A DNA stretch of 64,000 nucleotides, taken from positions 22 through 64,021 of IMG/VR virus record IMGVR_UViG_3300012973_000014, one strand, 5' to 3'. The DNA is from a virus. How positions within the stretch are numbered: the stretch's first letter is position 1; each line of letters begins with the position of its first letter. The position numbers and the translations under genes were made by a program. Below are positions 4,996 through 29,498 of the stretch, piece after piece. The notes beneath the pieces are model-generated. The model was not told the origin of the DNA, did not search any database, and saw only the letters and a list, made by a program, of their open reading frames with translations.

Positions 4996-5614
4996 CTTCT
5001 TTTTCTATATTAAGTTGTGTTTTATAATCATATTCAATACCTTGTTCCAAACATCGGGCCCTATAGTTACAACACTTACATTCATCCACGGTGTCGTCAG
5101 TTTCCTCAATGGCTACCCTATACCTACAGTTCAAGCAGTTCTCAGGAAGATATATCCTCGGAGGCTCCGGCGCCGAATCAGCTTTCTCATCATAATCCAG
5201 AACCTTATTCATGAACTTCTCAATGATAGCGCCCTGTTTATAATCCAATGTACCATCCTCTATAGACTGCACCAAATCATTACTGATTTTCTTCATGATG
5301 ACCGACTTAATCTCACTGCCATCAAAGCTTTTTCCATCCACTTGCTCACCACCCTCACGAGGCTTACCACCAAAATGAACCTCCAACTGAGCCTTTCTCG
5401 TCTTGATATAGTCAACTGCATCGCTGTTTCTCAATAATCCGGCCATCATAGTATTGGACTCTGCCTGATTCTTACCTGCAGCACACAGGTATCTGAACAG
5501 AATCTTCGGGTCTCCAATTCTCAAAATGTAACAATCCAAGAACACCTGTTGTATTTCCGTGAGCTCAGACGCTCTATTCTTCAACCTTTTAGGCAACACC
5601 AAATCTACTTCCAT
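4985..5614 (-). CDS. terminase-small-subunit-like HTH DNA-binding protein with C-terminal Cys cluster
   Basis: N-terminus 'LTEIQQVFLDCYI...GKNQAESNTMMAGLLRN..VDYI' matches the TerS/P27-family HTH pattern. C-terminus CxxC...CKCC. Sits in the replication module, far from TerL. Confidence 0.4.
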   Translation of the reverse strand: MEVDLVLPKRLKNRASELTEIQQVFLDCYILRIGDPKILFRYLCAAGKNQAESNTMMAGLLRNSDAVDYIKTRKAQLEVHFGGKPREGGEQVDGKSFDGSEIKSVIMKKISNDLVQSIEDGTLDYKQGAIIEKFMNKVLDYDEKADSAPEPPRIYLPENCLNCRYRVAIEETDDTVDECKCCNYRARCLEQGIEYDYKTQLNIEKEDGN

Positions 5615-6036
5615 AATTCATTCCTCCAAACTATACTGCCAGCCCTAACTGTATCCAGATACGCCTTGACTACCTCTGGCCTTGTACCACCCTTTCTTCG
5701 CAGCATAAAGGACTGGAAATCCTCAAAATTATCAATAAATACAGCCCTGTCCGGCAATACATCCATCATCCACCTAGCCTGCTTCCTCAAATGCTCTACC
5801 TTGTGTCCGGCGCCTTCAAATTTCAACTCTATCCCCCATAAATAGCCGTCATCATCCACATACAGCAAGTCACACACACCCGGAGTCATACCTACACCTA
5901 ATTTTAGCGTAACCGCCTGACCCTCATTGATTACCGCAAAAAGCCTCCTGCCCTTCTCAGGGTAAGTATTCTTCCACCACAACACACACTGTTGCTGCAG
6001 CTGGGCCTCACTTCTCGGTTCTTTCATACTCCTCAA
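5605..6036 (-). CDS. VRR-NUC domain nuclease
   Basis: 'CDLLYVDDDGYLWGIELKFEGAGHKVEHLRKQARW' matches PDLxx..G..IE(V/L)K...Q..W. Confidence 0.7.
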   Translation of the reverse strand: MRSMKEPRSEAQLQQQCVLWWKNTYPEKGRRLFAVINEGQAVTLKLGVGMTPGVCDLLYVDDDGYLWGIELKFEGAGHKVEHLRKQARWMMDVLPDRAVFIDNFEDFQSFMLRRKGGTRPEVVKAYLDTVRAGSIVWRNELWK

Positions 6037-6238
6037 GATAATTCAACCACTTGTCTTGTACAGAACACCAGAAAGTTGCACCCTCCCTTGTCCCTTCAAA
6101 CAAAAATAAACTCAAAAGCCAGTCCCTTGGTTCTTCATTATCCAACTCTCCCAAGATAGGCCGCTCGCAATTATCATATACCTTTCCGACTACTCCAGCT
6201 TCGGTTAAAAATCGCAGAAATGCGCCTTTATAGTTCAT
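6008..6238 (-). CDS. hypothetical small protein
   Basis: ORF track 6008..6436. Start placed at a downstream Met to avoid overlap with the upstream gene. Speculative. Confidence 0.25.
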   Translation of the reverse strand: MNYKGAFLRFLTEAGVVGKVYDNCERPILGELDNEEPRDWLLSLFLFEGTREGATFWCSVQDKWLNYLEEYERTEK

Positions 6239-6284
6239 GCCGTTTTTGTTTGCAAATTTACATAAATTAATCGGAAAACCCACC

Positions 6285-7214
6285 CTATTGAGCTTTTTTC
6301 GATAAAATGTAGTCTGCAATATCCCACTTTTCACCAACTTGACCGCATTTTTGCCACCATTTCCACACTTTCCCCATTTTCCCCCACTCTTCAGCTGCGT
6401 CAACATCCGGTACAAGCCACACATCGTACCCATCAAGATTCTTTAACGCGCGAAGTCCATTCTTACCTCCACAGGCAACCCAGTTATACTCCGGATATTC
6501 CAAGTACGCTATAATCGCACTCTTTTCACTCTCCACAACAAAGACCGGCCTACCCTCCACAAGAGAGTCCTCTCCAAACAAACAATCCGCCCTATACCCC
6601 CACTTCCTTTTATACTTTCGCATAGGAGGACAGTCCTTGATACGGTGTCCATCCGGAGCATAAAACATCGTTTTATCAAAACAAATCCTGCCTTGTCGGT
6701 CCTTATACCAAAAACGAGTACCTATAACGCCAGAATTACGCTCTTTTAAGCCCGTAGAGACATTATATCTACCGAAAGCATCTCTTACCTTATCTAGCCC
6801 GTAAAAGCTCGTCAAAAAGCAAAAAAGAGGGCAAAACCATTTTTTATCCGCTCCACCCTGCTCAATGAACATCCAAGGTTCCACATACTTTACCGGTCCG
6901 ATATACTCATCATCACTAAAAACAAGCTCCTTCTTCTCCCGTCCAAGCAAAACCGCCCGAACCTGCTCATTACTCATCCGTCCATACTGGACCATCCAAG
7001 ACCATAACGTCATACCATTACCGCCCTGCTCCATAACCAACGGCATCCTGTCCCGCGTCCCCTGCTTAATGACCATCTTATCCCAACGGTCATGCGGAGA
7101 ACCGTCAAGCCGATAAGGGCCGTACCATAAACGGCCCCTCAGCTTTAACCGCGGCAATCCCATCAAATCCGGCAACTGCGCATAAACACTGTCCCAATCT
7201 ATCTCTTCTCGCAT
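6285..7214 (-). CDS. Toprim domain protein (putative primase or primase-associated)
   Basis: C-terminal 'VFVVESEKSA...ACGG...DVWLVPDVDAAEE' resembles Toprim Glu plus DxD. 309 aa. Confidence 0.45.
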   Translation of the reverse strand: MREEIDWDSVYAQLPDLMGLPRLKLRGRLWYGPYRLDGSPHDRWDKMVIKQGTRDRMPLVMEQGGNGMTLWSWMVQYGRMSNEQVRAVLLGREKKELVFSDDEYIGPVKYVEPWMFIEQGGADKKWFCPLFCFLTSFYGLDKVRDAFGRYNVSTGLKERNSGVIGTRFWYKDRQGRICFDKTMFYAPDGHRIKDCPPMRKYKRKWGYRADCLFGEDSLVEGRPVFVVESEKSAIIAYLEYPEYNWVACGGKNGLRALKNLDGYDVWLVPDVDAAEEWGKMGKVWKWWQKCGQVGEKWDIADYILSKKAQ

Positions 7215-7447
7215 AACTTCTCAACAACTACAGCGACAGCATAGTCATTAATCCATCTCAAGTTATCCTCGCTCGCAAGAGCCAGAGTGGTAGCCTTGTC
7301 CCTATTCAAGTCATACAAGATACCTTGTGCCCCCTGCTGGATAAACTCATCCAAGTCGGCAATCATCGGTCCTTCACAGGTCATGAAGACAACCTTGCCT
7401 TCTTTCGCCTTCTCGCGTACGAAATTTTTTAATTCTCCAAGTTCCAT
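7199..7447 (-). CDS. hypothetical protein
   Basis: 82-aa ORF in an operon. Confidence 0.4.
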   Translation of the reverse strand: MELGELKNFVREKAKEGKVVFMTCEGPMIADLDEFIQQGAQGILYDLNRDKATTLALASEDNLRWINDYAVAVVVEKLCEKR

Positions 7448-8939: not shown

Positions 8940-9324
8940 TAATCATTACATTATCCTTGCTTATAACCATAATCTGCTTATCCCCAAGTGTATCCCGGAC
9001 ACCCGTAAACACATCTTTCCATTTCACTTCCTCCACATCTATCTCTATCCCCAAGATATATTCAAGCGACAGACTCTCAAAAGTATGGGTGTCGCAAAAA
9101 ACCTTATCAACATAATCATCATAACCACAATGAGAGATATAACCATTTGAATCAATAAAGAACATACACATATCAGAATATAGCTTCATTATTTCAGGCT
9201 TCTCCATCGTCTGCCATTTATACCCAATCTTGAACAGAAACTCCTGCAACTTAACCTGCTCATCCTCTGTCCTGAGAAGCACTTTACTATTTTTCAAGTG
9301 CTCAAAAGCTTCCTTCTTTGTCAT
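8929..9324 (-). CDS. hypothetical protein
   Basis: 131-aa ORF. Confidence 0.4.
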   Translation of the reverse strand: MTKKEAFEHLKNSKVLLRTEDEQVKLQEFLFKIGYKWQTMEKPEIMKLYSDMCMFFIDSNGYISHCGYDDYVDKVFCDTHTFESLSLEYILGIEIDVEEVKWKDVFTGVRDTLGDKQIMVISKDNVMIIDL

Positions 9325-9361
9325 AATCTACTTATAGTTTTTAATACACGTTGCAATTTCA

Positions 9362-10870
9362 TTAATCTGGTAAATCCTCTCCCCACAAATCCATATCCTC
9401 CTCACCGGCATCAATTTCTATCTTAACCTCTTTCGGTAACTTATACAAGATATATCCACTGCTGACCACTCCGTCTACCTTCATACACTTAACCCAAGTG
9501 AACTTGCTGTTAATCATATCGTTCTTGAAACCTCCAATATGCTTAGGGTCCCTATATCCGTTCTCCAGACACCAGTCGCAGTACTGCTTGTAGATATCCT
9601 TGCTGAGCATCTTCCTGAGCTCACCTTTGCCACTGCTATCCGATGGACTGTAGCAATAGTCAGCAAGAAAACCATACACTCCCGTACTGCCGTTACGCAT
9701 ATCCTCAGTAATCTCATCAATACTCTTACTCTTGGTGAACACACCCCTCTGCTTGATAATCCTCTGCCGGCCAACCAACACCCAGTTGAATATGCCCGGA
9801 ATCTCACTCTTGAGAGTGCCCTTGAAGCTCCTGTCCGCCTTCAACTGTCCCATCCTCGGGTCAGGATTGTCACTAAAAACCTTGTTGAACCAAATGACGA
9901 TATTCCTTCTCCAAAAACCGTCACTACTGTCAGTGGTAATCAGTCCTCTATTGATATTCGCCATAAACATCGGCCAGTCATCACTCTCAAACGGCATCTG
10001 TCGTATAGGCCTCACCGCAATCTTCTCCTTACTGATGAGCTGCTTGAACTTACCACTACCGATATCCTTGGCCTCAGCATCAGAGTTATACGCCAAGAGC
10101 TTGCCTACCAGCGACGCAGTGAAGTAATCACCACCGTTCTTATTGTTCACATTCTCGATACCCACATTGGTAAGGTTGTCACCCAGCATAGCCTGCAGTG
10201 TCTCAAATATCACACTCTTACCGTTACTTCCGGTTCCATAGCAGAACAGCGCCTTCTCGATACTCAGCTCCTCCTTGTCAATCAGCATACAACCCAAGAA
10301 CTCCTGTATCACCTTGATAGCATCACCGTCATCAAGCACAATGCTCAGGAACTTCTCCCACCCCTCACAAGTGGCAAACTCATTGTACGCAAAATCCAAG
10401 TAGATATTGGTCATCAGCTTAGGACTCTTCTCCATCAGCTGCATGTCTCCACCTCTACCCAGCACAAGAGCAGTGTTCCTGAAGAACAGGATACTCCTTG
10501 ACGGCTCAAAGTTACCCATATCCGGAGACCTGAGCACCATCTTGCATATATGCCCCACACTGCGCACCTGATAACACGGAGCCACCTTCATCACCTTGAA
10601 GAATCCGGCCACCACAAGAGCTATCTGCTCGGGGTCTATCAGCTCCCACCGCGACCCGTTGAACACCATTAGCGAGTCATGGAACCGGCGGAACCTCTCT
10701 GCCATCAGCTCCACAAGGACAAGGCCTATCCTGCCTTCCACGTCCGGACTGCACTTCTTATCCTGCTCCGTATCCGGCAGCATCATCTGCTGTACCCCGC
10801 TCTCCACCCTCTTATTATAATCATATACAAGGGAAGAAATGATTCTTGTCACATCCAGCTCCGCCATCAC
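9362..10870 (-). CDS. D5/P4-family primase-helicase (SF3 NTPase)
   Basis: Walker A 'YGTGSNGKS', Walker B 'LLAYNSDAE'. P4-type primase C-terminal helicase architecture. 502 aa. Confidence 0.7.
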   Translation of the reverse strand: MMAELDVTRIISSLVYDYNKRVESGVQQMMLPDTEQDKKCSPDVEGRIGLVLVELMAERFRRFHDSLMVFNGSRWELIDPEQIALVVAGFFKVMKVAPCYQVRSVGHICKMVLRSPDMGNFEPSRSILFFRNTALVLGRGGDMQLMEKSPKLMTNIYLDFAYNEFATCEGWEKFLSIVLDDGDAIKVIQEFLGCMLIDKEELSIEKALFCYGTGSNGKSVIFETLQAMLGDNLTNVGIENVNNKNGGDYFTASLVGKLLAYNSDAEAKDIGSGKFKQLISKEKIAVRPIRQMPFESDDWPMFMANINRGLITTDSSDGFWRRNIVIWFNKVFSDNPDPRMGQLKADRSFKGTLKSEIPGIFNWVLVGRQRIIKQRGVFTKSKSIDEITEDMRNGSTGVYGFLADYCYSPSDSSGKGELRKMLSKDIYKQYCDWCLENGYRDPKHIGGFKNDMINSKFTWVKCMKVDGVVSSGYILYKLPKEVKIEIDAGEEDMDLWGEDLPD

Positions 10871-11127
10871 GCACCCTCCACCATAAGTACACTCCTTCTC
10901 GCACCCTCCTTCCTGACCACACCTTCCCTGAGCCTAACCCTCGGCCTTTTATCACCCTCCACATCCTTCCTCTCTACAAGACCTTGCTCAATCCAATCCC
11001 TGACACACTCGTCAGTAACTCCCAAGTCCTTCGCCAATCCGACTATCCTCCACCATCTCTCTCCGGTTTCATCTAAAAAACTATGTTGCGTTTCCATATC
11101 TTCCTTTTTTTCTGCAAACATACACAC
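10867..11127 (-). CDS. HTH DNA-binding protein (MerR/excisionase-like)
   Basis: 'WRIVGLAKDLGVTDECVRDWI' HTH. Paralogous to the N-terminus of the adjacent 184-aa protein. Confidence 0.45.
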   Translation of the reverse strand: MCMFAEKKEDMETQHSFLDETGERWWRIVGLAKDLGVTDECVRDWIEQGLVERKDVEGDKRPRVRLREGVVRKEGARRSVLMVEGA

Positions 11128-11133
11128 TTTTTC

Positions 11134-11688
11134 TTATTTTGCAAAATTAATTCGGTCCAACTTTTTCTGATACTCGCTTGGGTCCCTGAATACCAAGTGA
11201 TTGCCATGACTTGCAGATGCCCACTTTTTTCTTCTGTATTCTGACAAGTGCTCCCATTCCTCATCAGTCCTGAACATAAACCGGCCATCACGTCGACTCA
11301 AGTATATGCCGTTTCTCATCCGGATATGGAACTCAAGGTCTCCAATACCATCCATTTTCATAATCTCCTGTGCGGTATAAATCTGAAGGTAATCATCATC
11401 TCGCAGCGTCTCTTTCCGCACCTCTCTTTTCCTCAACCTTTCCGAATCCTCCCCGACCTTTGCAATCACCTTCTCACCTTTCTCTACCCTCGTCAAGATA
11501 TAGGAGCTTCGTATCTCCCATCCGACATTCACCCTGAAGTACAGCCCCTTCTCGGTCCGCACCCTTATCAACGCACCCAACCTGCGGTAATACCACAAGG
11601 CGTTATCAGTAACTCCCAAGTACTCCTTAAGAGCCTTCAGTGTCCAGTACTCGACACCATCTTCTTCATAATATCCAAGTTTTGCCAT
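11134..11688 (-). CDS. HTH domain protein; first gene of the leftward replication operon
   Basis: 'WTLKALKEYLGVTDNALWYY' HTH. Adjacent to the iteron region. Candidate origin-binding protein or regulator. Confidence 0.45.
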   Translation of the reverse strand: MAKLGYYEEDGVEYWTLKALKEYLGVTDNALWYYRRLGALIRVRTEKGLYFRVNVGWEIRSSYILTRVEKGEKVIAKVGEDSERLRKREVRKETLRDDDYLQIYTAQEIMKMDGIGDLEFHIRMRNGIYLSRRDGRFMFRTDEEWEHLSEYRRKKWASASHGNHLVFRDPSEYQKKLDRINFAK

Positions 11689-11789
11689 AATTTAAATGCA
11701 AGGAAGCTCTAATCTCATCTCCCTCGTCGCTGCAAAGGTAAAAATAAAACCTTAAATTTTCAAGTTTTTCGCAAAAAGTAGTACGAAAA

Positions 11790-12000
11790 CTACCTATCCA
11801 AACTACCTCACATCCCTTACAAACTGAACAATTTATGAGTCAAGGTAGTAAGGTAGTACAAATTTCGGGCAAAGGTTTGAAAAGTTACATGTGTGCATAT
11901 ACCCTATACACCTATGTACTACCTGTACTACCTTATTATATAAATTATTGATAATCTAAGAGTAGTGAGGTAGTTTTTATGGTAGTTTTGGGGTAGTTCA
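11790..12000. repeat. iteron array: GGTAGT(W)/ACTACC, 11 or more copies in both orientations
   Basis: aactacct, aggtagtaaggtagtac, gtactacctgtactacc, gaggtagtttttatggtagttttggggtagttcaggtagttc. Confidence 0.6.
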
Positions 12001-12300
12001 GGTAGTTCATTTTTTTAAAAAAAAATTTTTCAGGGTCCGATTTGGGGTTTCCGGGTGCTCCCGGCACCCCTCCCCTCCCTAATTTGCTGATATTCAGCTA
12101 CTTACATTTTGGCTGTGCAAGGTACCTATCAAATGTGAGGTTTATTTTGAGGTATTTTTGTTGTAACTTATTGATATACAGATAGTTACGGGTCGTCACC
12201 TAAAGTTTTACTTTAAATAAACCTATCTAACCCGCTGTGTTTTAATACTTTGTATGTAACCCTTTGAAAATCAAAACTTTACAAAATGATACTTTTTTGC

Positions 12301-12350
12301 AGGGGGGTAGCCGTGCCCGTTTTGGCCGTTTTTAGCCGTTTTTAGCCACT
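12301..12350. repeat. 3x direct repeat TTTT(T)RGCCR
   Basis: ccgttttggccgtttttagccgtttttagccac. Confidence 0.5.
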
Positions 12351-12589
12351 TTGGGTCCTTATTGGTACTTGTATACCAGTTAAGGGGAGATAATTTAAAA
12401 CGCTGATACTCAGATAGTTACAAAATGAAGATATAAATATAATGTATTGATAGTCAAGTATTTAGACCTATTTTGATACTATTTTAACAAAGTGATACTA
12501 TTTTGCAAAGTATTGATTTTTAGGTAGTTATAAAAAACTTTTGGTTTAAAAATGTATCTCAGTAGTCCAAAAATACACAACCTTGTAAA

Positions 12590-12720
12590 ATTGTGCAGTC
12601 CCTTGTAAGTAAATGTAAGGTTTTTAGTTATAATTTGTAAGGGTTGCGGGGTTATATGCTTATAAATTGCAAGGTATAAAGTATAAGTTTTTAAAAAGTG
12701 TAAGTTTTTAGGAAAATTAA
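12590..12720. repeat. about 7 copies of TGTAAG/TGCAAG motifs upstream of the first early gene
   Basis: cttgtaaaa, cttgtaagtaaatgtaagg, ttgtaaggg, ttgcaagg, gtataagttttt, gtgtaagttttt. Confidence 0.45.
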
Positions 12721-12795
12721 ATAATTGGTTTTAACTTGCACCCGTAAACGGGAGCCACTCAGGCATACCGATATAACCTATAAATATATAATACA

Positions 12796-13362
12796 ATGAA
12801 AACAAACAACACAACCCGCCCAAATGTAACCGTAAATTTTAACAACGTTGTAAGCGCGTATAAAGCAGACGCACGCACCCTAAACCGCTTATTCAGGGAC
12901 CTCAATGCTCAGGCAGAAGGATGTGAGGATACTAAAAAGGTTCTTGCAATTATCTGCAAGGGGTGCAAAAACAACAACGAGAAGAAGAGCGCATTTGTCG
13001 CGTTCTGCAAACGTTATACAAAGTATGCCAACGACAACGGCCAAATATGCAAAATGCGCAAAGTTGCAGGATATAAAGAGATACAACGCGCGTACATTAA
13101 GGAAACGTTCACTTTTGGCGATTTCCGCGGGGCATGGTTGCTGTGGCTTAAGGATGTCAACGATACATACCAAGCCAAGATTATCAGTTTTGCGACATTC
13201 TATAACACTAAGGGGTTGCCAATGACAGCCGAACACGCTCTTAATATACACCGACTACAGCAACGAGAATTGAGAAGTAAACGCGCCCTTACTAAGGATA
13301 CACGCGCGGAAATTGCAACCCTTCAGGCGCGCATTAAAGAATTGCAAGATACCTTGTTATAG
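12796..13362 (+). CDS. hypothetical protein (first rightward early gene)
   Basis: 188-aa ORF after the control region. Confidence 0.5.
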   Translation: MKTNNTTRPNVTVNFNNVVSAYKADARTLNRLFRDLNAQAEGCEDTKKVLAIICKGCKNNNEKKSAFVAFCKRYTKYANDNGQICKMRKVAGYKEIQRAYIKETFTFGDFRGAWLLWLKDVNDTYQAKIISFATFYNTKGLPMTAEHALNIHRLQQRELRSKRALTKDTRAEIATLQARIKELQDTLL

Positions 13363-14200
13363 GCTTTTTTGCTCCCCGTTATGGGGGGGCGCGTTAATGC
13401 AGGGCCCCATATGGGGCGCGGTTGCAACCCCGCGTAAAATGCAGAGCAACGCAACGTTCATTGATATAACAACCTTACAAGGTTACACGGGGGCGGGTAT
13501 CTTATACCCGTTGCACCGCGGGGGCGGGTATCTTATACCCTTAAGCCTTGCAATCTAGCAACCCGTTAAAATCTGCTGTAAGGACTGAAAACGCGCTAAA
13601 TTGCACCCGTTAATATAAGGTATTAACGCGGTTTAAATAGTCGGTTTAGCGGGGTATTTTGGCACTTTATACGCGTTGTGCAACGCGTTGCCAAATACCC
13701 GTTGCAGGTATCCAATGCCAAACTCCCAACGGGGGGGCGGTAGGGGAGAATTGCACCCGTTTTGAAACGTGCACGGGGCGCAAACGTACTAAACCCAAAC
13801 GGGGGCGGTATGGGTGAGCTATGTCCGTGTGTTTGAGGTTTTCCCGTTATCTTAGGTCTGCAATGACTGAACGGGTGAACGGATACCGAACTATTAAGGG
13901 AGGTAGGGGTACTTTGTGCCCGAACCGAACGAGGATAGTCCGACCTTGCCGAATCGAAGTAGGTGAGGCGCGAGGGTATCGTATAGGAGAGAGTGAGCGA
14001 ACGAAACACAGAGATATAGGGGAGAACTATATCCGGACCGTCTTGAACGGTTGCGATACGCACACTTGAGATAGTGTGAACGGGTTTAGTGTAGACTATA
14101 TCCTGTGTGTTTTTCATAATAATACAAAACAGCAAGGGCATACTGTGCCCGAGCGACAGGTGTACGAACGGCCTGTGGTTAGGAACTGTTCGTTTCGGGG
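13363..14200. other. GC-rich structured noncoding region with G-tract repeats and perfect palindromes (candidate ncRNA or regulatory region)
   Basis: No credible ORF. GGGGGCGGGTATCTTATACCC appears twice. GGGGGCGGTA appears three times. TTGCACCCGT appears three times (12737, 13597, 13751). Palindromes GCCCCATATGGGGC and ACGCGTTGTGCAACGCGT. Confidence 0.5.
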
Positions 14201-14488
14201 GTGGGGTACGAGAGTACTCTGCCCTTTCTAATTTATAAGAGTATGATAAACTTAAGAGAATTACGCAAGAGAGAGCCTGAGCGGTTCTTTATCTTGTGGC
14301 GGCAGCAGGACCCGATAGGATTCGGCTTAGCCAGAATACGTGCGAGTTACGAGGAAGTAACGAGTGCGAAGAAAAACGGAAGTGATGACTATGCCCGTAT
14401 GAGAGCGAATCATATTGCCCTTGTACGGAAGTGGACTGACCTGTGCGGTTTGGAGGCCAAGCAGGTACGAAAATATTATTATGTATAA
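14201..14488 (+). CDS. hypothetical protein
   Basis: 95-aa ORF, start uncertain. Confidence 0.3.
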   Translation: MGYESTLPFLIYKSMINLRELRKREPERFFILWRQQDPIGFGLARIRASYEEVTSAKKNGSDDYARMRANHIALVRKWTDLCGLEAKQVRKYYYV

Positions 14489-14544
14489 CCAGCCCGAATG
14501 CGGACGGGGGCGCACCTGAACGGGTGTATTGGGTCCGAACGATT

Positions 14545-14706
14545 ATGAGAAAAGAGATGCTACTTCTTGTAGCTGTGTTGTGGTCTGGCGAGGTATGCGA
14601 GGCTGCATTGTGTCCGAACGAGAATGTTGAGGATGCGAAGAACGCTGTTATTGTGAACTACTGCTTACCTTGTGGAGCAGTTAAAGAGTGGAGGATTGAA
14701 AAATGA
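14545..14706 (+). CDS. small secreted or membrane Cys-rich peptide (putative)
   Basis: In-frame Met of ORF 14443..14706. 'MRKEMLLLVAVLWSG' hydrophobic N-terminus, 4 Cys. Confidence 0.3.
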   Translation: MRKEMLLLVAVLWSGEVCEAALCPNENVEDAKNAVIVNYCLPCGAVKEWRIEK

Positions 14707-14789
14707 GACGCAGAGAAGTATTGGAGAACATTGCCCTAACTGTGATTTTGTTGGGCGGTATGTACTTAGTATGTTTGGCTGGGTACTTG

Positions 14790-14813
14790 TTTAACTAAAA
14801 ACGATGTATTATG
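14790..14813 (+). promoter_or_regulatory. class-1 conserved leader cassette TTAACtAAAAacgatGTATTATG
   Basis: One of about 20 copies of TTAACCAAwAA-N(4-9)-GTATTATG, placed immediately 5' of a small ORF start. Confidence 0.55.
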
Positions 14814-15020
14814 AGTGAATTTAAGACCCATGCCACCTTGTGCTTGAGTAATTTTGGTGGCGTTGCTATTGAACTATCTGATACGGGGGAGGCCGTCAGA
14901 TACAAATGGTATGATAATAAGCCGAGCCGTTGGTGCAAGGTGTATTACAACCTTAAGGGCGAACCGTATTTCAAGATGGCGGGCAAAAGGTACTACCTGA
15001 GCGAATTTATGCGGGTGTGA
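14811..15020 (+). CDS. hypothetical early protein
   Basis: 69 aa. Preceded by the class-1 cassette. Confidence 0.5.
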   Translation: MSEFKTHATLCLSNFGGVAIELSDTGEAVRYKWYDNKPSRWCKVYYNLKGEPYFKMAGKRYYLSEFMRV

Positions 15021-15084
15021 AGCCGAACCGGGCACGACTTGGGAGAGTTGTGTCTGGACGAATTAACTAAAACTGTATTGTATT

Positions 15085-15321
15085 ATGGAAATGATGAACA
15101 AATGGGTATACTTCTGTTTCAATTACCCGTACGACTTTATTGAGCAGATTTGGGGTGGAGAGTATATTTGCGACCACCTAAAGGGTAAATTTCAGATGTA
15201 CTATGACCTTGTAGGCAGTACCGGCGTGATGAACAAGTTTTATGCGAACTTGGACAAGACTAATCAAAGAAGGCTGCTGCAGTGGGTTATAGATAACTAT
15301 AACGATGAGCAGAAGTTGTAA
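15085..15321 (+). CDS. hypothetical early protein
   Basis: 78 aa. Class-1 cassette at 15062-15087. Confidence 0.5.
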   Translation: MEMMNKWVYFCFNYPYDFIEQIWGGEYICDHLKGKFQMYYDLVGSTGVMNKFYANLDKTNQRRLLQWVIDNYNDEQKL

Positions 15322-15384
15322 AGCAAGGAGGGTGCGTAGTGATACGTGCCCTTTTTCTATTTAACCAAAACGATAAGAAAAGTT

Positions 15385-15612
15385 ATGAAGACAATCAAAA
15401 TTGCTCCGAACCTTGATGAGATTGAGGTAGGGGCGAACTATGTTTCTACAGAGTGGAACGGTGGTATCAGGTACGAGGCTGAGGGATTGGACCGGTACAA
15501 GGAGGACTATCTGAAGCAGTGTTTCAGTACTGCGATAGCTATGAGTGGCCGACCATGGCAGCTTGAGGCTATATTGAACGACCATTTAGGATTGAAGGGA
15601 GTGGTGAAGTAG
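15385..15612 (+). CDS. hypothetical early protein
   Basis: Start placed at the Met after the cassette (TTAAC at 15361). ORF track 15346..15612. Confidence 0.45.
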   Translation: MKTIKIAPNLDEIEVGANYVSTEWNGGIRYEAEGLDRYKEDYLKQCFSTAIAMSGRPWQLEAILNDHLGLKGVVK

Positions 15613-15673
15613 AACGAGGAGCCGAGGCAGGGATGTCTTGGCTCTTGCAATTATTAACCAAAACGATTGTATT

Positions 15674-15937
15674 ATGCTAAACAGAAATGTAATTGAGGGC
15701 GTGGAAGGACTACGCGAACTAATTATGAGAGAGATTAGAGAACATTTGGCGGACGAATGTGAGGGCGGGCCGGTGGATATTGATATAAAGTTTAATTTGG
15801 ACGGTAACGCAGAATATTTGCGTAGTATTCAATTGGACGAGGATGGTGAAAATGTATTGGTAGTAACCGATACGGGAGTAAACGAGTTGTTCTTATATTC
15901 TCTTGATGAGATGATTAAAATTGTGGATGCGCTGTAG
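15674..15937 (+). CDS. hypothetical acidic early protein
   Basis: Start at the Met after the cassette (TTAAC at 15654). Acidic composition. Confidence 0.45.
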   Translation: MLNRNVIEGVEGLRELIMREIREHLADECEGGPVDIDIKFNLDGNAEYLRSIQLDEDGENVLVVTDTGVNELFLYSLDEMIKIVDAL

Positions 15938-15943
15938 TACTGG

Positions 15944-15971
15944 ACCCTACTTGGTGCGAATCAGGTAGGGT
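15944..15971 (+). terminator. conserved hairpin ACCCTAC-N14-GTAGGGT (copy 1)
   Basis: Identical 28-nt element repeated at 16282-16309. Followed by 'TAC..TTAACC'. Confidence 0.5.
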
Positions 15972-15999
15972 TACTATTATTAACCAAAAACGAACTATT

Positions 16000-16275
16000 A
16001 TGAAAGAGATTGAATTAGGTTCCGATGGGGGAACTATTGCTCTTATGGAATGGATTAGGGCGAACAATTACCCAGCCTTAGATACAACATTTTGTCGGTC
16101 AGCAAGCGGATACTATACTCTTATAGTATCTTCTTACGAACCGACCGAATTTGATTTAGACCTTTCCGATGGGGAGTGGTTTGAATGGAAGGGTATGAAG
16201 AGGCACTTTTGTGGTCTTCCACGAATGTGGGTGATGTATATTGACGGGTATTGGTATTACGCAACGCCTTATTGA
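16000..16275 (+). CDS. hypothetical early protein
   Basis: 91 aa. Cassette TTAAC at 15980. Confidence 0.5.
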   Translation: MKEIELGSDGGTIALMEWIRANNYPALDTTFCRSASGYYTLIVSSYEPTEFDLDLSDGEWFEWKGMKRHFCGLPRMWVMYIDGYWYYATPY

Positions 16276-16281
16276 TGAATG

Positions 16282-16309
16282 ACCCTACTTGGTGCGAATC
16301 AGGTAGGGT
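16282..16309 (+). terminator. conserved hairpin ACCCTAC-N14-GTAGGGT (copy 2)
   Basis: Identical to 15944-15971. Confidence 0.5.
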
Positions 16310-16315
16310 TACGAA

Positions 16316-16382
16316 TTTTTAACCAGCGGCGAACGGCTGTGCTGCGCTCCTACGGGAGTTTAATGGGCCGTGTTGTATTATG
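16316..16382 (+). promoter_or_regulatory. class-2 conserved leader (TTTTTAACCAGC...GCGC...TAATGGGCCG...TATTATG)
   Basis: One of 4 copies (16316, 20066, 26780, 28131) of a roughly 65-nt element with three conserved blocks. Confidence 0.5.
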
Positions 16383-17129
16383 ATGGAATATGTTAGACCT
16401 ACAGAGATGATGAGACTTACTGTTATCAATGGTAATGTTTGCGAAGGAACTATCTGCGGAGTTATCTTGACTATCGTGGAGGGTGATATTGTAATGGACG
16501 GTTACCGATTTAAGCACAATGGCAAAGGGATTATCTTGCCGGCGGATCAGGAGTTCTATTTTGATGAGAATACATTCAAGTTAGGGCAACCTATCATTCC
16601 TGACTGCTCTTGGAACGGCCTGTACAGCCTTGTTGGTTGGGACCGTCCGACCTTGTGGTACTACAAGAATGGTAAGGCAGAGCCATGGAAGTGGAAGAAT
16701 GAGCTTATTTCTTGGGAGATATTGCCTAACTATAACGCTAAGTTGTTGAACGGCTTTATCCCGGATGAGTTATTCGGCGAAGAGAAGGATGTCTATAGTT
16801 GGCACGACCTTATCGTACATAAGGATAACGGGGATATTGAGTTTAAGAAGGCTCCGCTATCTGTATTGCGATTGAATGATAATCAGCAGAAGCTGTTTGA
16901 ACAATTTAAGGCGTTACTTAAAGAGATGACCGATGCTGACATGTTGATTGTTGAAGATAGGGACCGCTGCGAACTGGCGGTATTGAACTGCAGTGAATAC
17001 AGAGTAGAGTTCGAGTGCGGCAACGATTTCGAACCGGCATTTCCGACAGATATGCAGGTTGTTATCCGTAATCATACCTATTATTACGGGGATGGTAGTG
17101 AGCGAATGAACATTTACAAGAAGAAGTAG
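16380..17129 (+). CDS. hypothetical protein
   Basis: 249 aa. Behind the class-2 leader. Confidence 0.55.
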   Translation: MMEYVRPTEMMRLTVINGNVCEGTICGVILTIVEGDIVMDGYRFKHNGKGIILPADQEFYFDENTFKLGQPIIPDCSWNGLYSLVGWDRPTLWYYKNGKAEPWKWKNELISWEILPNYNAKLLNGFIPDELFGEEKDVYSWHDLIVHKDNGDIEFKKAPLSVLRLNDNQQKLFEQFKALLKEMTDADMLIVEDRDRCELAVLNCSEYRVEFECGNDFEPAFPTDMQVVIRNHTYYYGDGSERMNIYKKK

Positions 17130-17193
17130 GTAAACGAACGGGGGCTGGTGCAGAGATGTGCCGGCCCTTACTATTAACCAATAAAATGATATT

Positions 17194-18093
17194 ATGAATT
17201 ACGAAGAGATGTACGAACGAGTTAAAGCTGAACTACAGACTGAGTACGACCTGTGCTATGTAGATTACCGGGACTCTTTTAGTGTCAAGATGGTAGCTGA
17301 ATGTCTTGAGCGAAAGAGTCTTCAACCTTTATGGGAGGAAGACTGCTACTGGGAACATCGGTCTGATGCAAGTTTTGATATTTTGGACAAGATAGGTCTG
17401 AAATTATATAAGGATTACGAGTGGCTTGAGTTTAAACAAGAGTCGTATTTGTACAATGACCTGCGTTACTTGATTCAGGAACGTGATGTAAGCGAACCAG
17501 AGAAAGACTGCTGGATGCAAACGAGGGTGGATGGCAGGGTGTTACTATTCAGTAATTATGACTGCTGGGTTCCGCCGTATGATGCCGGTGGGTTGGATGC
17601 TTTTCATGACTACCTTGAGACCGCTATGAGAGTACTATGCTTGAATCCTAAGAAAGTTAAGGAGGTTTGCAGTGAGTGGACGACTTGCAGAGGTAGGTGG
17701 CCGAATTACCATTGGAGAGATGGTAAAGAGGTGGTGAGTTATGAGGGATTTAGCAAGATATTGCGAGAGTCTTGTTCTTACGGCTTACTATGCTTTGTCG
17801 GCAAGATGAATATGAGCGAGTTATGGGATAAGATTGATAAGCAGGATGAGTTAGTTATCCCTAAGGGAACCACTGTAACTATGTTCAACCATTGGAATGG
17901 TGGTGGCAGCATGGATGATTGTAAAACTCTCAGAGATGTATCTTTGGGAGAAATGAACCGCAGAGCGCAAAAATGTCTTGTGGGAACCGAGTATGACTTC
18001 GTTGAGCTTGAGGTAGATGAGAGAGGTTGCTGTAGAGGATATAGTACCGGTGAGGTGTATGGTGGTAGCTTAAGCGATGATGACTTGTTTTAG
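17194..18093 (+). CDS. hypothetical protein
   Basis: 299 aa. Cassette TTAAC at 17174. Confidence 0.55.
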   Translation: MNYEEMYERVKAELQTEYDLCYVDYRDSFSVKMVAECLERKSLQPLWEEDCYWEHRSDASFDILDKIGLKLYKDYEWLEFKQESYLYNDLRYLIQERDVSEPEKDCWMQTRVDGRVLLFSNYDCWVPPYDAGGLDAFHDYLETAMRVLCLNPKKVKEVCSEWTTCRGRWPNYHWRDGKEVVSYEGFSKILRESCSYGLLCFVGKMNMSELWDKIDKQDELVIPKGTTVTMFNHWNGGGSMDDCKTLRDVSLGEMNRRAQKCLVGTEYDFVELEVDERGCCRGYSTGEVYGGSLSDDDLF

Positions 18094-18156
18094 TAAAACG
18101 CGGCTGTAATAGGGATATTGCAGTCGTGGCGAGTTATTAACCAAAATTGATGTATT

Positions 18157-18417
18157 ATGAAAATCAGAGAAATCAAAGCAAAGGACGGTGCAAGAGAGTG
18201 CCGTATTTTCGTGAGCAGTTGTGTAAAGAACGAGATTGATGATGGCCGTATAGTGAAGGGCTATTGGTATATTGTCAAAGGCGGACAGGTCGGACGATTT
18301 GTGCGAGAATATATCAAAAGCGGTAAGCAGCTGGATAACCTTGAGGATTATGATGTGTTCAATATCAACGGGAGCTGTGATACCAAGGAGTATTTTGCGG
18401 AATTGCTTGCTATGTAA
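18157..18417 (+). CDS. hypothetical early protein
   Basis: 86 aa. Cassette at 18137. Confidence 0.5.
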   Translation: MKIREIKAKDGARECRIFVSSCVKNEIDDGRIVKGYWYIVKGGQVGRFVREYIKSGKQLDNLEDYDVFNINGSCDTKEYFAELLAM

Positions 18418-18424
18418 CGAACGG

Positions 18425-18450
18425 GACCCCGGCAGAGATGTACGGGGTTT
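18425..18450 (+). terminator. intrinsic terminator hairpin with conserved loop GCAGAGATGT
   Basis: gaCCCCGgcagagatgtaCGGGGtttt. Confidence 0.55.
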
Positions 18451-18477
18451 TGCAATGTTTAACTAAAAGAATGTATT

Positions 18478-18735
18478 ATGACACACGAAGACCAACAGAG
18501 GTTTATTGAGCTTGCTAAAAAAGCGAGGTATAATGAGGCTATGGATGAGCTGACCACTTTTGTATGTAATCATGTCGGAGAGGGTTTTAGCGGGCCGGAC
18601 GCCGAGCGAATGGCGGACGACTTCGCACTTCTTGCGGCTTGGATATATGACCGGCTGAACGGCGAGAATCCAAGGGCAAGGAGGAGTGTAACGAACAAGA
18701 TTAGGAAGGCGCTGGGGTACATACCTATGCAGTAG
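18478..18735 (+). CDS. hypothetical early protein
   Basis: 85 aa. Cassette at 18459. Confidence 0.5.
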   Translation: MTHEDQQRFIELAKKARYNEAMDELTTFVCNHVGEGFSGPDAERMADDFALLAAWIYDRLNGENPRARRSVTNKIRKALGYIPMQ

Positions 18736-18799
18736 TGAACAAGGAGGATGCGGGGAGGCCGGCATCCTCTTGCTATTAACCAACTAAATTTTATGTATT

Positions 18800-19120
18800 A
18801 TGGAAAAAGAATGGACAGAAGCAGGTATTAAGTATGTATTTGAAACTATCAAGAAGTGGATTAAGACAAGAACCTTCAAGACTCTAAAGAATGGAACCAT
18901 AGGTGGCTCTATGACGATTAAACAAATGGAGAATCTTCTTGGCTTGCCTTACTCGAGTTCCGGTAGACATGCGGGATTATGGATATGTAACGACGTTGTA
19001 TACTTGGACCTTGAGTGTAAGTATCATATCGCTGGGTTCTGTATGGATGTACGAGGATGCGTCTATGCTGAATGTTTTGATAAAGATGAAAACGAGTTGT
19101 TTATACCTATAAATAAGTAA
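18800..19120 (+). CDS. hypothetical early protein
   Basis: 106 aa. Cassette upstream. Confidence 0.5.
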   Translation: MEKEWTEAGIKYVFETIKKWIKTRTFKTLKNGTIGGSMTIKQMENLLGLPYSSSGRHAGLWICNDVVYLDLECKYHIAGFCMDVRGCVYAECFDKDENELFIPINK

Positions 19121-19123
19121 GTT

Positions 19124-19318
19124 ATGACTATCAAGGAATTACGAAAAATGTTCTGGACTGAAGTAGCCACAGATGAGATGCGTAAGGAGTATCGCAGTAG
19201 GAAAACGCAGAATGACTATTCTACCGATGTACGATGTGCTTGGGTGGATTTTACTGACCATGCAGTAAAGAGCGGGTGGATAACACAGAAGCAGTGTGAT
19301 GAACGAGCCACCTTGTAA
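19124..19318 (+). CDS. hypothetical early protein
   Basis: 64 aa, 3-nt spacing after the previous gene. Confidence 0.4.
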   Translation: MTIKELRKMFWTEVATDEMRKEYRSRKTQNDYSTDVRCAWVDFTDHAVKSGWITQKQCDERATL

Positions 19319-28637: not shown

Positions 28638-28736
28638 CCTATTAACTTTGTAAGAAAATTTGAGATATGACACTATTGTTTATTATATGGGGAATCGCGT
28701 ATTTCTGCGAGGAACTGATAAATGGAGGTAAATAGT

Positions 28737-29498
28737 ATGGTTTACGCGTATTATCGTTATTCTACAGGCAAGCAGACTGAGATGCAACAGGAGCATAGAG
28801 TTCGGGAATACTGCCATAACCGAGGCATAACTATCGACGCTGTGGTTATAGATAGAGCCGTAAGTGGAGCCATATCTATAGAAAACAGGAATCTCGCAGC
28901 GCTGATTGGAAAGATGAAGCCGGGGGATACATTGATTGTTTCAGAGGTATCACGTATATCCCGTTCTATTGGGGACTTCTGCGAGTTTATATTGGTTGCC
29001 ATGCCTAAGCTTAAAGCGAGGCTAATCGTCTGCAGTATGGGTCTGGATATAGATTGTGCTAATATGTCCGGTATGACGCAGATGCAGCTGATGATGTTTT
29101 CATGCTTCGCTCAGATAGAGCGAGAGCTTATTACGGACCGTATTCAGGCGGCAATAGACGCTCGCAAGGAAGCCGCTAAGGTTAACGGTGGTTGGACATC
29201 CAAGTCCGGCAATTACTGCACTCATTTGGGACGGGATTCGTTCAACGACCCTTCAGCAGCCGGTAAGAAATCGGCATTCAACAAGAAGAAGAAGTTTATG
29301 AAGGGTATGCGCCCGGTAGCGGAGCATATAAGGTTATTAAAAAGCACTACAGATTTGGATAATCTACGAATAGCTATTGCCCTTAATAATGCCGGATTCA
29401 GAACTGGCAACGGAGGTAAGTTCCATCATTCACATATACCTAAAATACTGAAATATGACGAAGAAGGTATCTATTACGAAGAAGCAGACTTCATGTAA
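28737..29498 (+). CDS. small serine recombinase (resolvase/invertase family)
   Basis: 'VYAYYRYSTGKQ' catalytic Ser motif, 'SEVSRISRS', C-terminal HTH. Start placed at the Met before the motif (ORF track 28722). Confidence 0.75.
   Translation: MVYAYYRYSTGKQTEMQQEHRVREYCHNRGITIDAVVIDRAVSGAISIENRNLAALIGKMKPGDTLIVSEVSRISRSIGDFCEFILVAMPKLKARLIVCSMGLDIDCANMSGMTQMQLMMFSCFAQIERELITDRIQAAIDARKEAAKVNGGWTSKSGNYCTHLGRDSFNDPSAAGKKSAFNKKKKFMKGMRPVAEHIRLLKSTTDLDNLRIAIALNNAGFRTGNGGKFHHSHIPKILKYDEEGIYYEEADFM

Follow-up and report, generated by a model that had tools for sequence, protein, structure and literature searches.

A mirror-symmetric GGTAGT iteron array as a candidate SaPI/P4-type replication origin in a tailed phage

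The question raised by this locus is whether a 1.1-kb non-coding gap in a viral genome holds an origin of DNA replication, a control region for the genes on either side, or both. The gap occupies positions 11689-12795 of a 64,000-nucleotide stretch of IMG/VR record IMGVR_UViG_3300012973_000014 (positions 22 to 64,021 of that record; the whole stretch is referred to below as the window). It is bounded by a leftward 184-aa open reading frame (ORF; 11134-11688) and a rightward 188-aa ORF (12796-13362), and is touched by short ORFs only (40-48 aa). The leftward operon encodes the 184-aa protein, an 86-aa protein, a 502-aa DUF5906 helicase of superfamily 3 (SF3), MazG and a DUF6371 protein (6285-7214), putatively a primase; a rightward array of small genes starts at 12796. 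An earlier note on this DNA had proposed the entire gap, with “four iteron families”, as a likely replication origin or master regulatory region. The origin proposal is retained here for one part of the gap, a GGTAGT array (11777-12006, ~240 bp) with a flanking AT tract and GC element (to ~12080), but not for the whole 1.1 kb or for four families of iterons. We read this element, with a probability of about 0.65, as a phage replication origin of the kind known from staphylococcal pathogenicity islands (SaPIs) and satellite phage P4, an assignment that rests on anatomy and analogy. That the gap is also a divergent control region is borne out by Bacteroidota-type promoters at both of its edges.

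Anatomy of the GGTAGT array

Ten exact copies of GGTAGT or its complement ACTACC lie within 218 bp (11789-12006), against ~0.11 expected from the rest of the window (Poisson P ~4e-17), and two AGTAGT copies at 11777 and 11961 bring the array to 12 words in 230 bp (11777-12006). These are the repeats in both orientations to which the earlier note had drawn attention, and they include the palindrome that it had picked out, GTAGTacgaaaACTAC (11778-11793). In an unbiased scan of all hexamers in 250-bp windows, the array ranked first in the 64 kb, with 10 copies compared with 6 for the runner-up. Elsewhere in the window, seven copies of GGTAGT/ACTACC fall within 1.7 kb of a 2534-aa ORF (44731-46416; ~0.75 expected); these are most likely a matter of codons or composition in a repetitive tail protein (Thr-Thr on the coding strand) and not a second origin-like site.

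The words have a 6-bp core, occur in both orientations and start 8-13 bp apart. Read along the plus strand, the order is one forward and two reverse words, two forward words, a 60-bp spacer, two reverse words, a 28-bp stretch of 89% AT and five forward words, so that the layout is mirror-symmetric and near-identical when read from either end. The left outer block (11777-11807) consists of AGTAGT on the plus strand (11777-11782) and ACTACC, i.e. minus-strand words, at 11789-11794 and 11802-11807. Its first two words make up a palindrome, GTAGT-N6-ACTAC, located upstream of the leftward promoter described below at a distance of 13 bp from its -33 element, and the position and orientation of the block are kept in seven related loci (L131, L001, L005, L003, L004, L134 and L136). 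The inner left pair, GGTAGTaaGGTAGT (11844-11857, plus strand, starts 8 bp apart), and the inner right pair, ACTACCtgtACTACC (11918-11932, minus strand, starts 9 bp apart), both point to the central spacer, and the inner right pair forms a 15-nt, 93% inverted repeat with 11846-11860. Doublets of the inner left type are the hallmark of the arrays found in other IMG/VR loci, which are considered in the next section. The right outer run comprises five plus-strand words (11961-12006; AGTAGT at 11961 and GGTAGT at 11969, 11981, 11992 and 12001) with starts 8, 12, 11 and 9 bp apart, and a run of 3-5 copies was found at this place in every relative.

Two segments within the array are candidate unwinding sites on the basis of their composition. 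The central 60-bp spacer (11858-11917, 63% AT), which lies between the convergent iteron pairs, contains an alternating purine-pyrimidine (RY) tract, CATGTGTGCATATAC (11888-11902), with an RY tract at the equivalent place in L004, L003, L134 and L316. The 28-bp AT stretch (11933-11960, 89% AT) is a second candidate; in a nearest-neighbour stability profile, the 40-mer 11926-11965 was the least stable of the array and ranked seventh from the bottom in the 64 kb.

To the right of the last iteron lies a T7-A9-T5 tract (12010-12030; 21 bp, 100% AT), and an A(8-10)T(4-7) tract is kept here in eight relatives (L131, L001, L005, L003, L004, L134, L128 and L316). It is followed by a GC element (12032-12079) made up of a AGGGTCCGA box (12032-12040), a GC hairpin (12044-12070) and a C-rich block, CCCCTCCCCTCCC (12067-12079). 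The hairpin, GGGG..CCGGG-TGCT-CCCGG..CCCC, had been noted earlier and is indeed present. Its predicted DNA folding energy is -11.4 kcal/mol (z = -2.1), and the most stable 40-mer in the region contains it. All relatives keep the box and the C-rich block, but not the hairpin itself. The GC element may bound the origin as a GC clamp, or act as a signal for priming or loading. The gap was also considered as a possible site of a structured RNA, and this was rejected: an Rfam scan gave no match within 11689-12795, and the pairing of the GC hairpin is not kept in L128, L003 or L004. No match to the DnaA box TTATCCACA with up to one mismatch was found from 9112 to 19275, i.e. none less than 2.5 kb from the array, which fits a self-contained initiator.

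Conservation of the array and its association with primase-helicases

Relatives of the locus were collected as the contigs of six homologues of the 184-aa protein together with contigs of SF3 helicase homologues, which gave nine related loci with an array (L131, L001/L002, L005, L003, L004, L134/L135, L136, L316 and L128). Their helicases are 34-97% identical to that of the window, and L128 is the cultured Parabacteroides phage PF672P1 (OP172819.1). An array was present in every related locus that includes the upstream DNA, with the same block order and orientation, and the arrays share an RY- or AT-rich central spacer, an A/T tract and a C-rich block. In L131, which encodes a 183-aa homologue 97% identical to the 184-aa protein, iteron columns were 96% identical to those of the window compared with 55% for spacer columns (Fisher P = 2e-11); the corresponding values for L003 were 72 and 37% (P = 7e-7). 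With increasing divergence the iteron word itself varies, to TGTAGT (L004), TGTAG(T/G) (L316), (G/A)GTAG(T/G) (L134) and GGTAGG (L128). Words that are kept while spacers drift, combined with a word that shifts between lineages, are the signature to be expected when selection acts on an array of protein-binding sites and its reader evolves along with it.

Several of the related contigs carry features of their own. In OP172819.1, a 1.5-kb gap with no annotation precedes a gene labelled “P4-specific DNA primase” and contains, at 6800-7300, the same origin-like architecture built of GGTAGG iterons. The contig with TGTAGT iterons, L004, has a fragment of a Y1 (IS200/IS605-type) transposase gene at its end (12211-12240) and an HNH-MazG fusion in the replication operon (5300-6310), and an HNH_3 protein is inserted in the same operon of L133. 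Contig ends were also considered as possible genome termini and set aside; that of L005 falls within the GC element, but L131 and L132 end elsewhere.

GGTAGT arrays of the same core layout were also found in IMG/VR contigs and in one Myxococcota metagenome-assembled genome (MAG), where the genes that they adjoin belong to three or more other lineages of primase-helicase. A scan of IMG/VR with the 14-mer GTAGTAAGGTAGTA gave at least 120 loci, and the reversed 14-mer was used as a control (120 loci). Among the matches listed, five or more GGTAGT words within 300 bp were present at 19/120 loci but at only 1/120 control loci (Fisher P = 2e-5). The IMG/VR arrays have the same facing doublets around a 60-90-bp AT-rich spacer, plus flanking copies. 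A strict gapped pattern returned 5 viral matches only, its spacing limits being too tight, and no prevalence estimate is drawn from it.

Neighbouring genes were inspected at 16 array loci with at least six copies, one of which was too short to judge. In 13 of the remaining 15, among the matches listed, the array abuts a primase-helicase gene. At nine of these loci (including L053, L111, L061, L086, L074 and L093) it lies 0-15 bp past the stop codon of a BT4734_N-PriCT_2-VapE/DUF5906 protein, whose nearest cultured relatives are in Nonlabens, Cellulophaga and Flavobacterium phages; at four others (L007, L008, L076 and L026) it lies 170-400 bp upstream of a gene for a Prim-Pol-PriCT_2-AAA protein. 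In the Myxococcota MAG (L179) the array follows a gene for a DUF5906 protein of ~1000 aa. When the proteins of the window were compared by BLASTP with those of the IMG/VR array loci, the only one shared was a VRR-NUC-like nuclease, and hidden Markov models (HMMs) of the two domains of the 184-aa protein and of the small winged helix-turn-helix (wHTH) family to which the 86-aa protein belongs gave no match there. Given this adjacency and the lack of HTH matches in the same loci, the constant partner of the array is an SF3 primase-helicase, not an HTH protein or a promoter. Some of these arrays sit at the 3' end of a helicase gene whose neighbour across the array runs in the same direction, a position ill-suited to a promoter operator.

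In bacterial genomes, the pattern GGTAGTNNGGTAGT-N50-80-ACTACC-N2-3-ACTACC was found at 55 places in several phyla (L137-L191). These are intergenic, GC-rich, hairpin-like elements of 80-110 bp with the form (GGTAGTnn)2-4, GC-rich spacer, (nnACTACC)2-4, in which the 2-nt filler is genome-specific. They are often multi-copy, with ~20 in one Thermomicrobiales MAG (Chloroflexota), occur also in Neolewinella and other Bacteroidota, in Verrucomicrobiota and in Acidobacteriota, and resemble repetitive extragenic palindromic (REP) elements or their paired forms (REPINs). They may be kin to the phage origins or have no more in common with them than the word used in the search.

The helicase of the window (9362-10870, minus strand) was assigned to the D5/P4-type, DUF5906 group of SF3 by Pfam and PHROGs and has a C-terminal winged helix at about residues 415-478. 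An AlphaFold (AF2) model built from 41 homologues (predicted local distance difference test score, pLDDT, 86) shows a strand-helix-helix-wing domain at residues 417-477. Its best Foldseek match in the PDB was the SaPI5 primase-helicase 7OLA (E = 5.6e-18; template modelling, TM, scores 0.63/0.72; 464 aligned columns including the C-terminal domain), which outranked the D5/E5 primase-helicases of African swine fever virus (ASFV) and poxviruses. A sequence-profile search of the PDB gave no match at E <= 1, and identity to 7OLA in the structural alignment is 15%. From this model the helicase is a candidate for both initiator and replicative helicase.

SaPI origins contain 6-12 penta- or hexanucleotide iterons directly downstream of rep, with a central AT-rich region flanked on either side by two or more iterons that point in opposite directions, and Rep reads them through the winged helix of its C-terminal domain; SaPI Reps are themselves unrelated in sequence to one another (PMC9371898). 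The window resembles this arrangement in iteron number and length (12 words of 6 nt), in a meltable centre with opposed iteron pairs, in the SF3 helicase with a C-terminal winged helix encoded beside the array and in having no DnaA box. Two forward GGTAGT words, the 60-bp spacer and two ACTACC words reproduce the AT-rich centre with opposed pairs, and the 89%-AT spacer at 11933-11960 is likewise flanked by oppositely oriented words. In origins of the SaPI type, Rep binds the iterons and melts the origin without ATP. The window differs in the lack of detectable sequence similarity between the helicases and in the placement of the array upstream of the operon with two HTH genes between; the position directly after the helicase stop codon is instead seen in the IMG/VR loci L053, L111, L061, L086, L074 and L093 and in L179. 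It also has five iteron blocks where SaPIs have two, an appended conserved AT tract and GC/C-rich element, and the setting of a full phage of a Bacteroidota host rather than a satellite.

Other systems share parts of this anatomy. The alpha protein of satellite phage P4 is a D5/P4-family SF3 helicase with its own primase domain and a C-terminal winged-helix domain that reads short iterons (TGTTCACC), and the P4 origin has short opposed iterons flanking an easily melted spacer beside the gene for this initiator-helicase; a second site, crr, ~4 kb away, is also needed. The helicase of the window belongs to the same family, and its relatives are annotated “P4 family primase” in databases, but no second GGTAGT array corresponding to crr was seen in the window. 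The lambda origin, bound by O, and iteron plasmids (pPS10, RK2, F and P1) have iterons of 17-22 bp in one orientation with helical phasing, which are read by lambda O or by WH1-WH2 Rep proteins, and rely on loading of host DnaB, often with DnaA boxes. The window is like these in having repeated initiator sites by an AT-rich unwinding element near an initiator gene, and an inverted partial pair beside the initiator promoter that could autoregulate as in iteron plasmids, but its words are 6 bp long, in both orientations, 8-13 bp apart and without a DnaA box. The origins of simian virus 40 (SV40) and papillomaviruses, which are eukaryotic viruses, are recognized through an origin-binding domain of another fold and assemble a head-to-head double hexamer. 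Inverted penta- or hexamer words around a centre, with an AT tract and an easily melted element, are common to both, and apart from the SF3 ATPase core the likeness is one of analogy only.

Which protein reads the word comes down to the winged helix of the helicase C-terminal domain or a small MerR/Xis-like protein as candidates. The earlier note had regarded the two adjacent HTH proteins as the obvious binders and as paralogues. Neither idea fared well. The paralogy is weakly supported, by a BLASTP match between the N-terminus of the 184-aa protein and the 86-aa protein (E = 3e-4 over 26 residues), and the 184-aa protein (11134-11688, minus strand; two winged-HTH-like domains at 1-68 and 95-184) has only six homologues in 5.8 billion proteins. 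Its best, though weak, fold matches are Xis- and BldC-type proteins, with TubR also among the weak ones. As a universal binder it was rejected, being absent from L134/L135, L136, L128 and L316, four relatives that keep the array, and its domain HMMs came up empty in the IMG/VR array loci; it is an accessory protein of one sub-clade only.

The 86-aa protein (10867-11127, minus strand) is a putative MerR/HTH_17 (Xis/AlpA-like) winged-HTH protein. Matches of its family to MerR, MerR_1 and HTH_17 are mostly sub-threshold: it scores 16.2 bits against MerR_1 (cut-off 21.6), the 63-aa member in L136 reaches 22.4 bits, above the cut-off, and that in L135 scores 26.8 bits against MerR (cut-off 28.2). 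The small protein precedes the helicase in almost every relative; family members of 63-108 aa do so directly in L001, L003, L005, L133, L135 and L136, L128 has a weaker relative and L004 none. In L134/L135 and L316, the small protein has two HTH repeats and the iteron doublets are mixed (GTAGT beside GTAGG). Against it as the reader stand its absence from L004 and from the IMG/VR array loci, where the family was sought as binder and not found. From its sequence the 86-aa protein could be an alternative iteron reader or an operon regulator.

By analogy with SaPIs, and as the universal neighbour of the arrays, the modelled helicase would be at least as good a candidate as the HTH proteins. In L004, which has TGTAGT words, the helicase core is 91% identical to that of the window and the winged helix 58%, with a first strand that resembles L316 and L134. 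That divergence is matched in L136 (winged helix 42%, core 70%), where GGTAGT is nevertheless kept, which counts against the helicase winged helix as reader; co-variation of winged helix and iteron word is suggestive, not decisive. A reader domain shared across the helicase lineages was also sought, and hhalign showed at most a weak match in the ATPase core.

Promoters and repeats in the remainder of the gap

The window is a tailed-phage genome, with a major head protein (59436-60545) and two very large structural ORFs, and also encodes a DNA methyltransferase, a DEAD-box helicase and a serine recombinase (28722-29498). It has no close DNA relative among 50,697 GenBank phage records, and DNA and protein searches for close relatives in IMG/VR and GenBank phages gave 34% protein identity at best. 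The nearest cultured relatives of its SF3 helicase are in the Parabacteroides phages PF672P1/P2 (34% identity) and the Bacteroides LoVEphage (27%). These relatives, together with Bacteroidota-type promoters before the genes on both sides of the gap, make the host almost certainly a member of the Bacteroidales.

The Bacteroidota sigma-A promoter consensus is -33 TTTG / -7 TAnnTTTG. A scan for sigma-70 promoters and terminators was dropped as not relevant to a Bacteroidota host, and the pattern TTTG-N19-21-TAnnTTTG was used in its place. The leftward promoter of the replication operon (11733-11764, minus strand) has the -7 box TACCTTTG (11740-11733), a 20-nt spacer and the -33 box CTTG (11764-11761). 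L131, L001 and L003 have a leftward promoter in the equivalent position, and in L004, L134 and L128 the operon is adjoined by a leftward box. The rightward promoter (12708-12739, plus strand) has the -33 box TTAG (12708-12711), a 20-nt spacer and the -7 box TAACTTGC (12732-12739), each with one mismatch to the consensus (TAACTTGC against TAnnTTTG), and is followed by a leader hairpin; perfect versions (TTTG-N20-TAnnTTTG) stand at the equivalent place in L001, L004, L134 and L128. Both promoters lie at the edges of the gap, ~45-60 nt from their respective genes, and are kept in relatives.

The right-hand ~650 bp (12088-12705) lies outside the GGTAGT array, and its repeats are not iterons of the GGTAGT type. 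A 17-bp site, TGATnnTCAGnTAGTTA, occurs in five plus-strand copies (12088, 12172, 12404, 12448 and 12514), and every match in the 64 kb with up to two mismatches falls in 12088-12530. The copy at 12172 sits in a 25-bp dyad, TAACT-N3-TGA-N3-(T/A)CA-N3-AGTTA (12164-12188), which is kept in L131, L001 and L003; to judge by their form, the copies look like operators. Three 10-bp T-tract units on the plus strand, TTTTGGCCGT, TTTTAGCCGT and TTTTAGCCAC (12320-12349; period 10, 2.8 copies, 94% matches), correspond to the three TTTT(T)RGCCR repeats of the earlier note. Since the T-tracts are in phase with the helix, they would be expected to bend the DNA intrinsically, and units of the TTTTTAGCC type occur also in L001, L003 and L128.

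The four or five TGATACT repeats of the earlier note were likewise recovered, as exact copies at 12287, 12404, 12474 and 12493 and TGATATT at 12088, and are split between two longer motifs (repeat families D1 and D2/D4). Its “about seven” TGTAAG repeats proved a generous count, with four exact copies (12604, 12614, 12636 and 12699) and three one-mismatch variants (12585, 12669 and 12683) on the plus strand of 12585-12705. The TGTAAG-type repeats include a conserved TTATAAATTG(T/C)AAG and are kept in L001 and L003. Together with TGATACT(W)TTTT they lie upstream of the rightward promoter, for which they are probably operators or upstream elements. The P values of these three minor repeat families are post hoc, and conservation in relatives weighs more for their reality. 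Among relatives, the right-hand repeats vary in sequence and keep their position. We read them as probable operators or architectural sites for the rightward early promoter, or as sites for accessory factors.

Further features lie at or beyond the right edge of the gap. The sequence TTGCACCCGT has three exact plus-strand copies (12736-12745, 13601-13610 and 13751-13760), the first of which overlaps the -7 box of the rightward promoter, and a short hairpin, formed by CCCGT and an ACGGG downstream of it, follows each copy; the copies may represent an early-promoter or leader element common to the genes of the rightward array. Just past the 188-aa ORF, positions 13391-13452 (plus strand) gave a full-length match to the type-P1 twister ribozyme (RF03160) at 40.6 bits against a gathering score of 67.2 (E ~2e-7), with the conserved core UAA..GC / CGGU..CAA..CCCG / GUAAA..GAG aligned. 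A second non-coding stretch (13460-13830) contains GGGGCGGGTATCTTATACCC twice (13490-13509 and 13521-13540), each with the palindrome GGGTAT-CTT-ATACCC, and its repeats form hexamer cluster no. 3 of the window; a minus-strand 172-aa ORF there has no family match and may be spurious.

Proposed initiation, alternatives and implications

In the proposed sequence of events, host RNA polymerase would transcribe the leftward operon from the promoter at 11733-11764, whose motif is present and whose activity is presumed. The 502-aa helicase would then bind the GGTAGT words, directly with its C-terminal winged helix or by way of the small MerR/Xis-like protein as adaptor, and the mirror-symmetric layout would position two helicase assemblies face to face. 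Melting might take place at the RY tract of the central spacer or at the 89%-AT stretch (11933-11960), after which the helicase rings could close on the single strands, the DUF6371 protein prime, and host polymerase copy the DNA bidirectionally. When the initiator occupies the outermost inverted pair, which is 13 bp away from the -33 element on its upstream side, it may influence transcription of the operon in a feedback loop of the type seen in iteron plasmids.

Several observations weigh against an origin of this kind. The array lies ~900 bp upstream of the helicase gene with two genes between, whereas the SaPI origin is directly downstream, and at 63% AT the central spacer is far below the AT-richness of the IMG/VR array spacers. 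The winged helices of the helicase lineages that share GGTAGT have no detectable sequence similarity, which is odd if they read the same word, and for that reader there are candidates only. The enrichment in IMG/VR rests on a single control word, and in one IMG/VR lineage the arrays lie just upstream of terminase genes, where a packaging role is possible. The GC-skew check that had been suggested in the earlier note cannot decide the question: the cumulative minimum (~12 kb) coincides with the switch in gene strand and there is no skew change at arrays in loci with co-oriented genes, so that skew, which follows gene strand, adds nothing and was set aside as uninformative.

The same array could alternatively be a transcriptional operator or enhancer, to which the 86-aa/184-aa wHTH proteins bind cooperatively, switching the leftward and perhaps the rightward early promoters with no role in replication. 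Xis- and BldC-type proteins bind direct-repeat arrays head to tail, and are the fold matches, weak as they are, of the 184-aa protein; the proximity of the array to the leftward -33 element, the small wHTH gene before the helicase in nearly every relative and the mixed doublets where the small protein has two HTH repeats (L134/L135 and L316) point the same way. We nevertheless consider it improbable, since in at least six IMG/VR loci the array sits at the 3' end of a primase-helicase gene and the genes on its two sides run in the same direction, no member of either wHTH family was detected there, some relatives retain the array but have no 184-aa protein, and a 240-bp, 12-site, mirror-symmetric array around meltable spacers far exceeds what a promoter operator needs. 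Iteron origins commonly autoregulate, so operator and origin roles are not mutually exclusive. A chance insertion of a selfish palindromic element of the REP/REPIN type or resembling a miniature inverted-repeat transposable element (MITE), for which the multi-copy (GGTAGTnn)2-4 ... (nnACTACC)2-4 hairpins of several bacterial phyla provide a model, is scarcely credible: the array is single-copy in the window, its position relative to the replication operon is fixed in nine relatives with 34-97% helicase identity, its word co-varies with divergence, and the phage spacers are AT-rich and not self-complementary, unlike those of the GC-rich bacterial hairpins.

Two further roles, packaging and partition, also seem very unlikely. 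Small terminases often bind repeated sites, and a pac/cos site bound by the small terminase subunit would suit the L053/L111/L093/L013 lineage and L074, where the replication genes end on one side of the array and the small and large terminase genes lie on the other, at 300-900 bp; the end of the L005 contig within the GC element would also suit such a site. The contig ends of other relatives fall elsewhere, however, no packaging gene is near the array in the window or its relatives (the head gene is at 59-60 kb), no terminase is nearby in the Prim-Pol lineage, and the constant neighbour is the primase-helicase. Plasmid centromeres are arrays of short repeats that flank promoters, and a centromere-like partition site to which a small winged-HTH adaptor binds in an episomal prophage would accord with the serine recombinase of the window, with TubR among the weak fold matches of the 184-aa protein and with a relative, L134, that encodes ParA and a resolvase 2.5-4 kb from its array. 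In the parts of the window examined, ParA, ParM and TubZ were not found, and the idea of a partition system there was dropped as no ParA is near the serine recombinase; around the IMG/VR arrays there are no partition genes either, and the association is with helicases. The L134 genes (CbiA/ParA family and resolvase, 453-2026) imply in their own right that some of this phage group may persist as plasmid-like prophages.

The reading of the array as a replication origin is well supported by its anatomy, its conservation, the association with primase-helicases across lineages and the structural likeness of the helicase to a characterised self-loading initiator. The kind of origin is a known one, and the GGTAGT word and five-block layout are previously undescribed and widespread in Bacteroidota phages. 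A literature search for the GGTAGT motif returned primer sequences only, and in the literature searched no replication origin was described for Bacteroidales phages. More tentatively, and with more doubt than conviction, mirror-symmetric GGTAGT(AA) arrays might constitute a widespread, undescribed class of origin that serves at least four primase-helicase lineages in Bacteroidota phages or mobile elements and in at least one Myxococcota MAG. The four lineages have no detectable sequence similarity outside the ATPase core. If the class is real, one word combined with dissimilar winged helices would call for a common reader, be it a small conserved module, a factor from the host or a word that the primase recognises, and the chromosomal (GGTAGTnn)n hairpins might have arisen from this machinery or be recognised by it.

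That one hexamer recurs in several helicase lineages is a modest, now testable puzzle, and PF672P1, cultured and sequenced, is a practical system for experimental tests. If confirmed, the element would provide a precise 240-bp origin and a small gene set for replicons or shuttle vectors in gut Bacteroidota, and natural specificity variants (GGTAGT, TGTAGT and GGTAGG) for studying iteron recognition by SF3 self-loading helicases or their partners. In contigs of uncultured phages, two GGTAGT doublets that face each other with 60-90 bp between them would then be a signature of the replication module.

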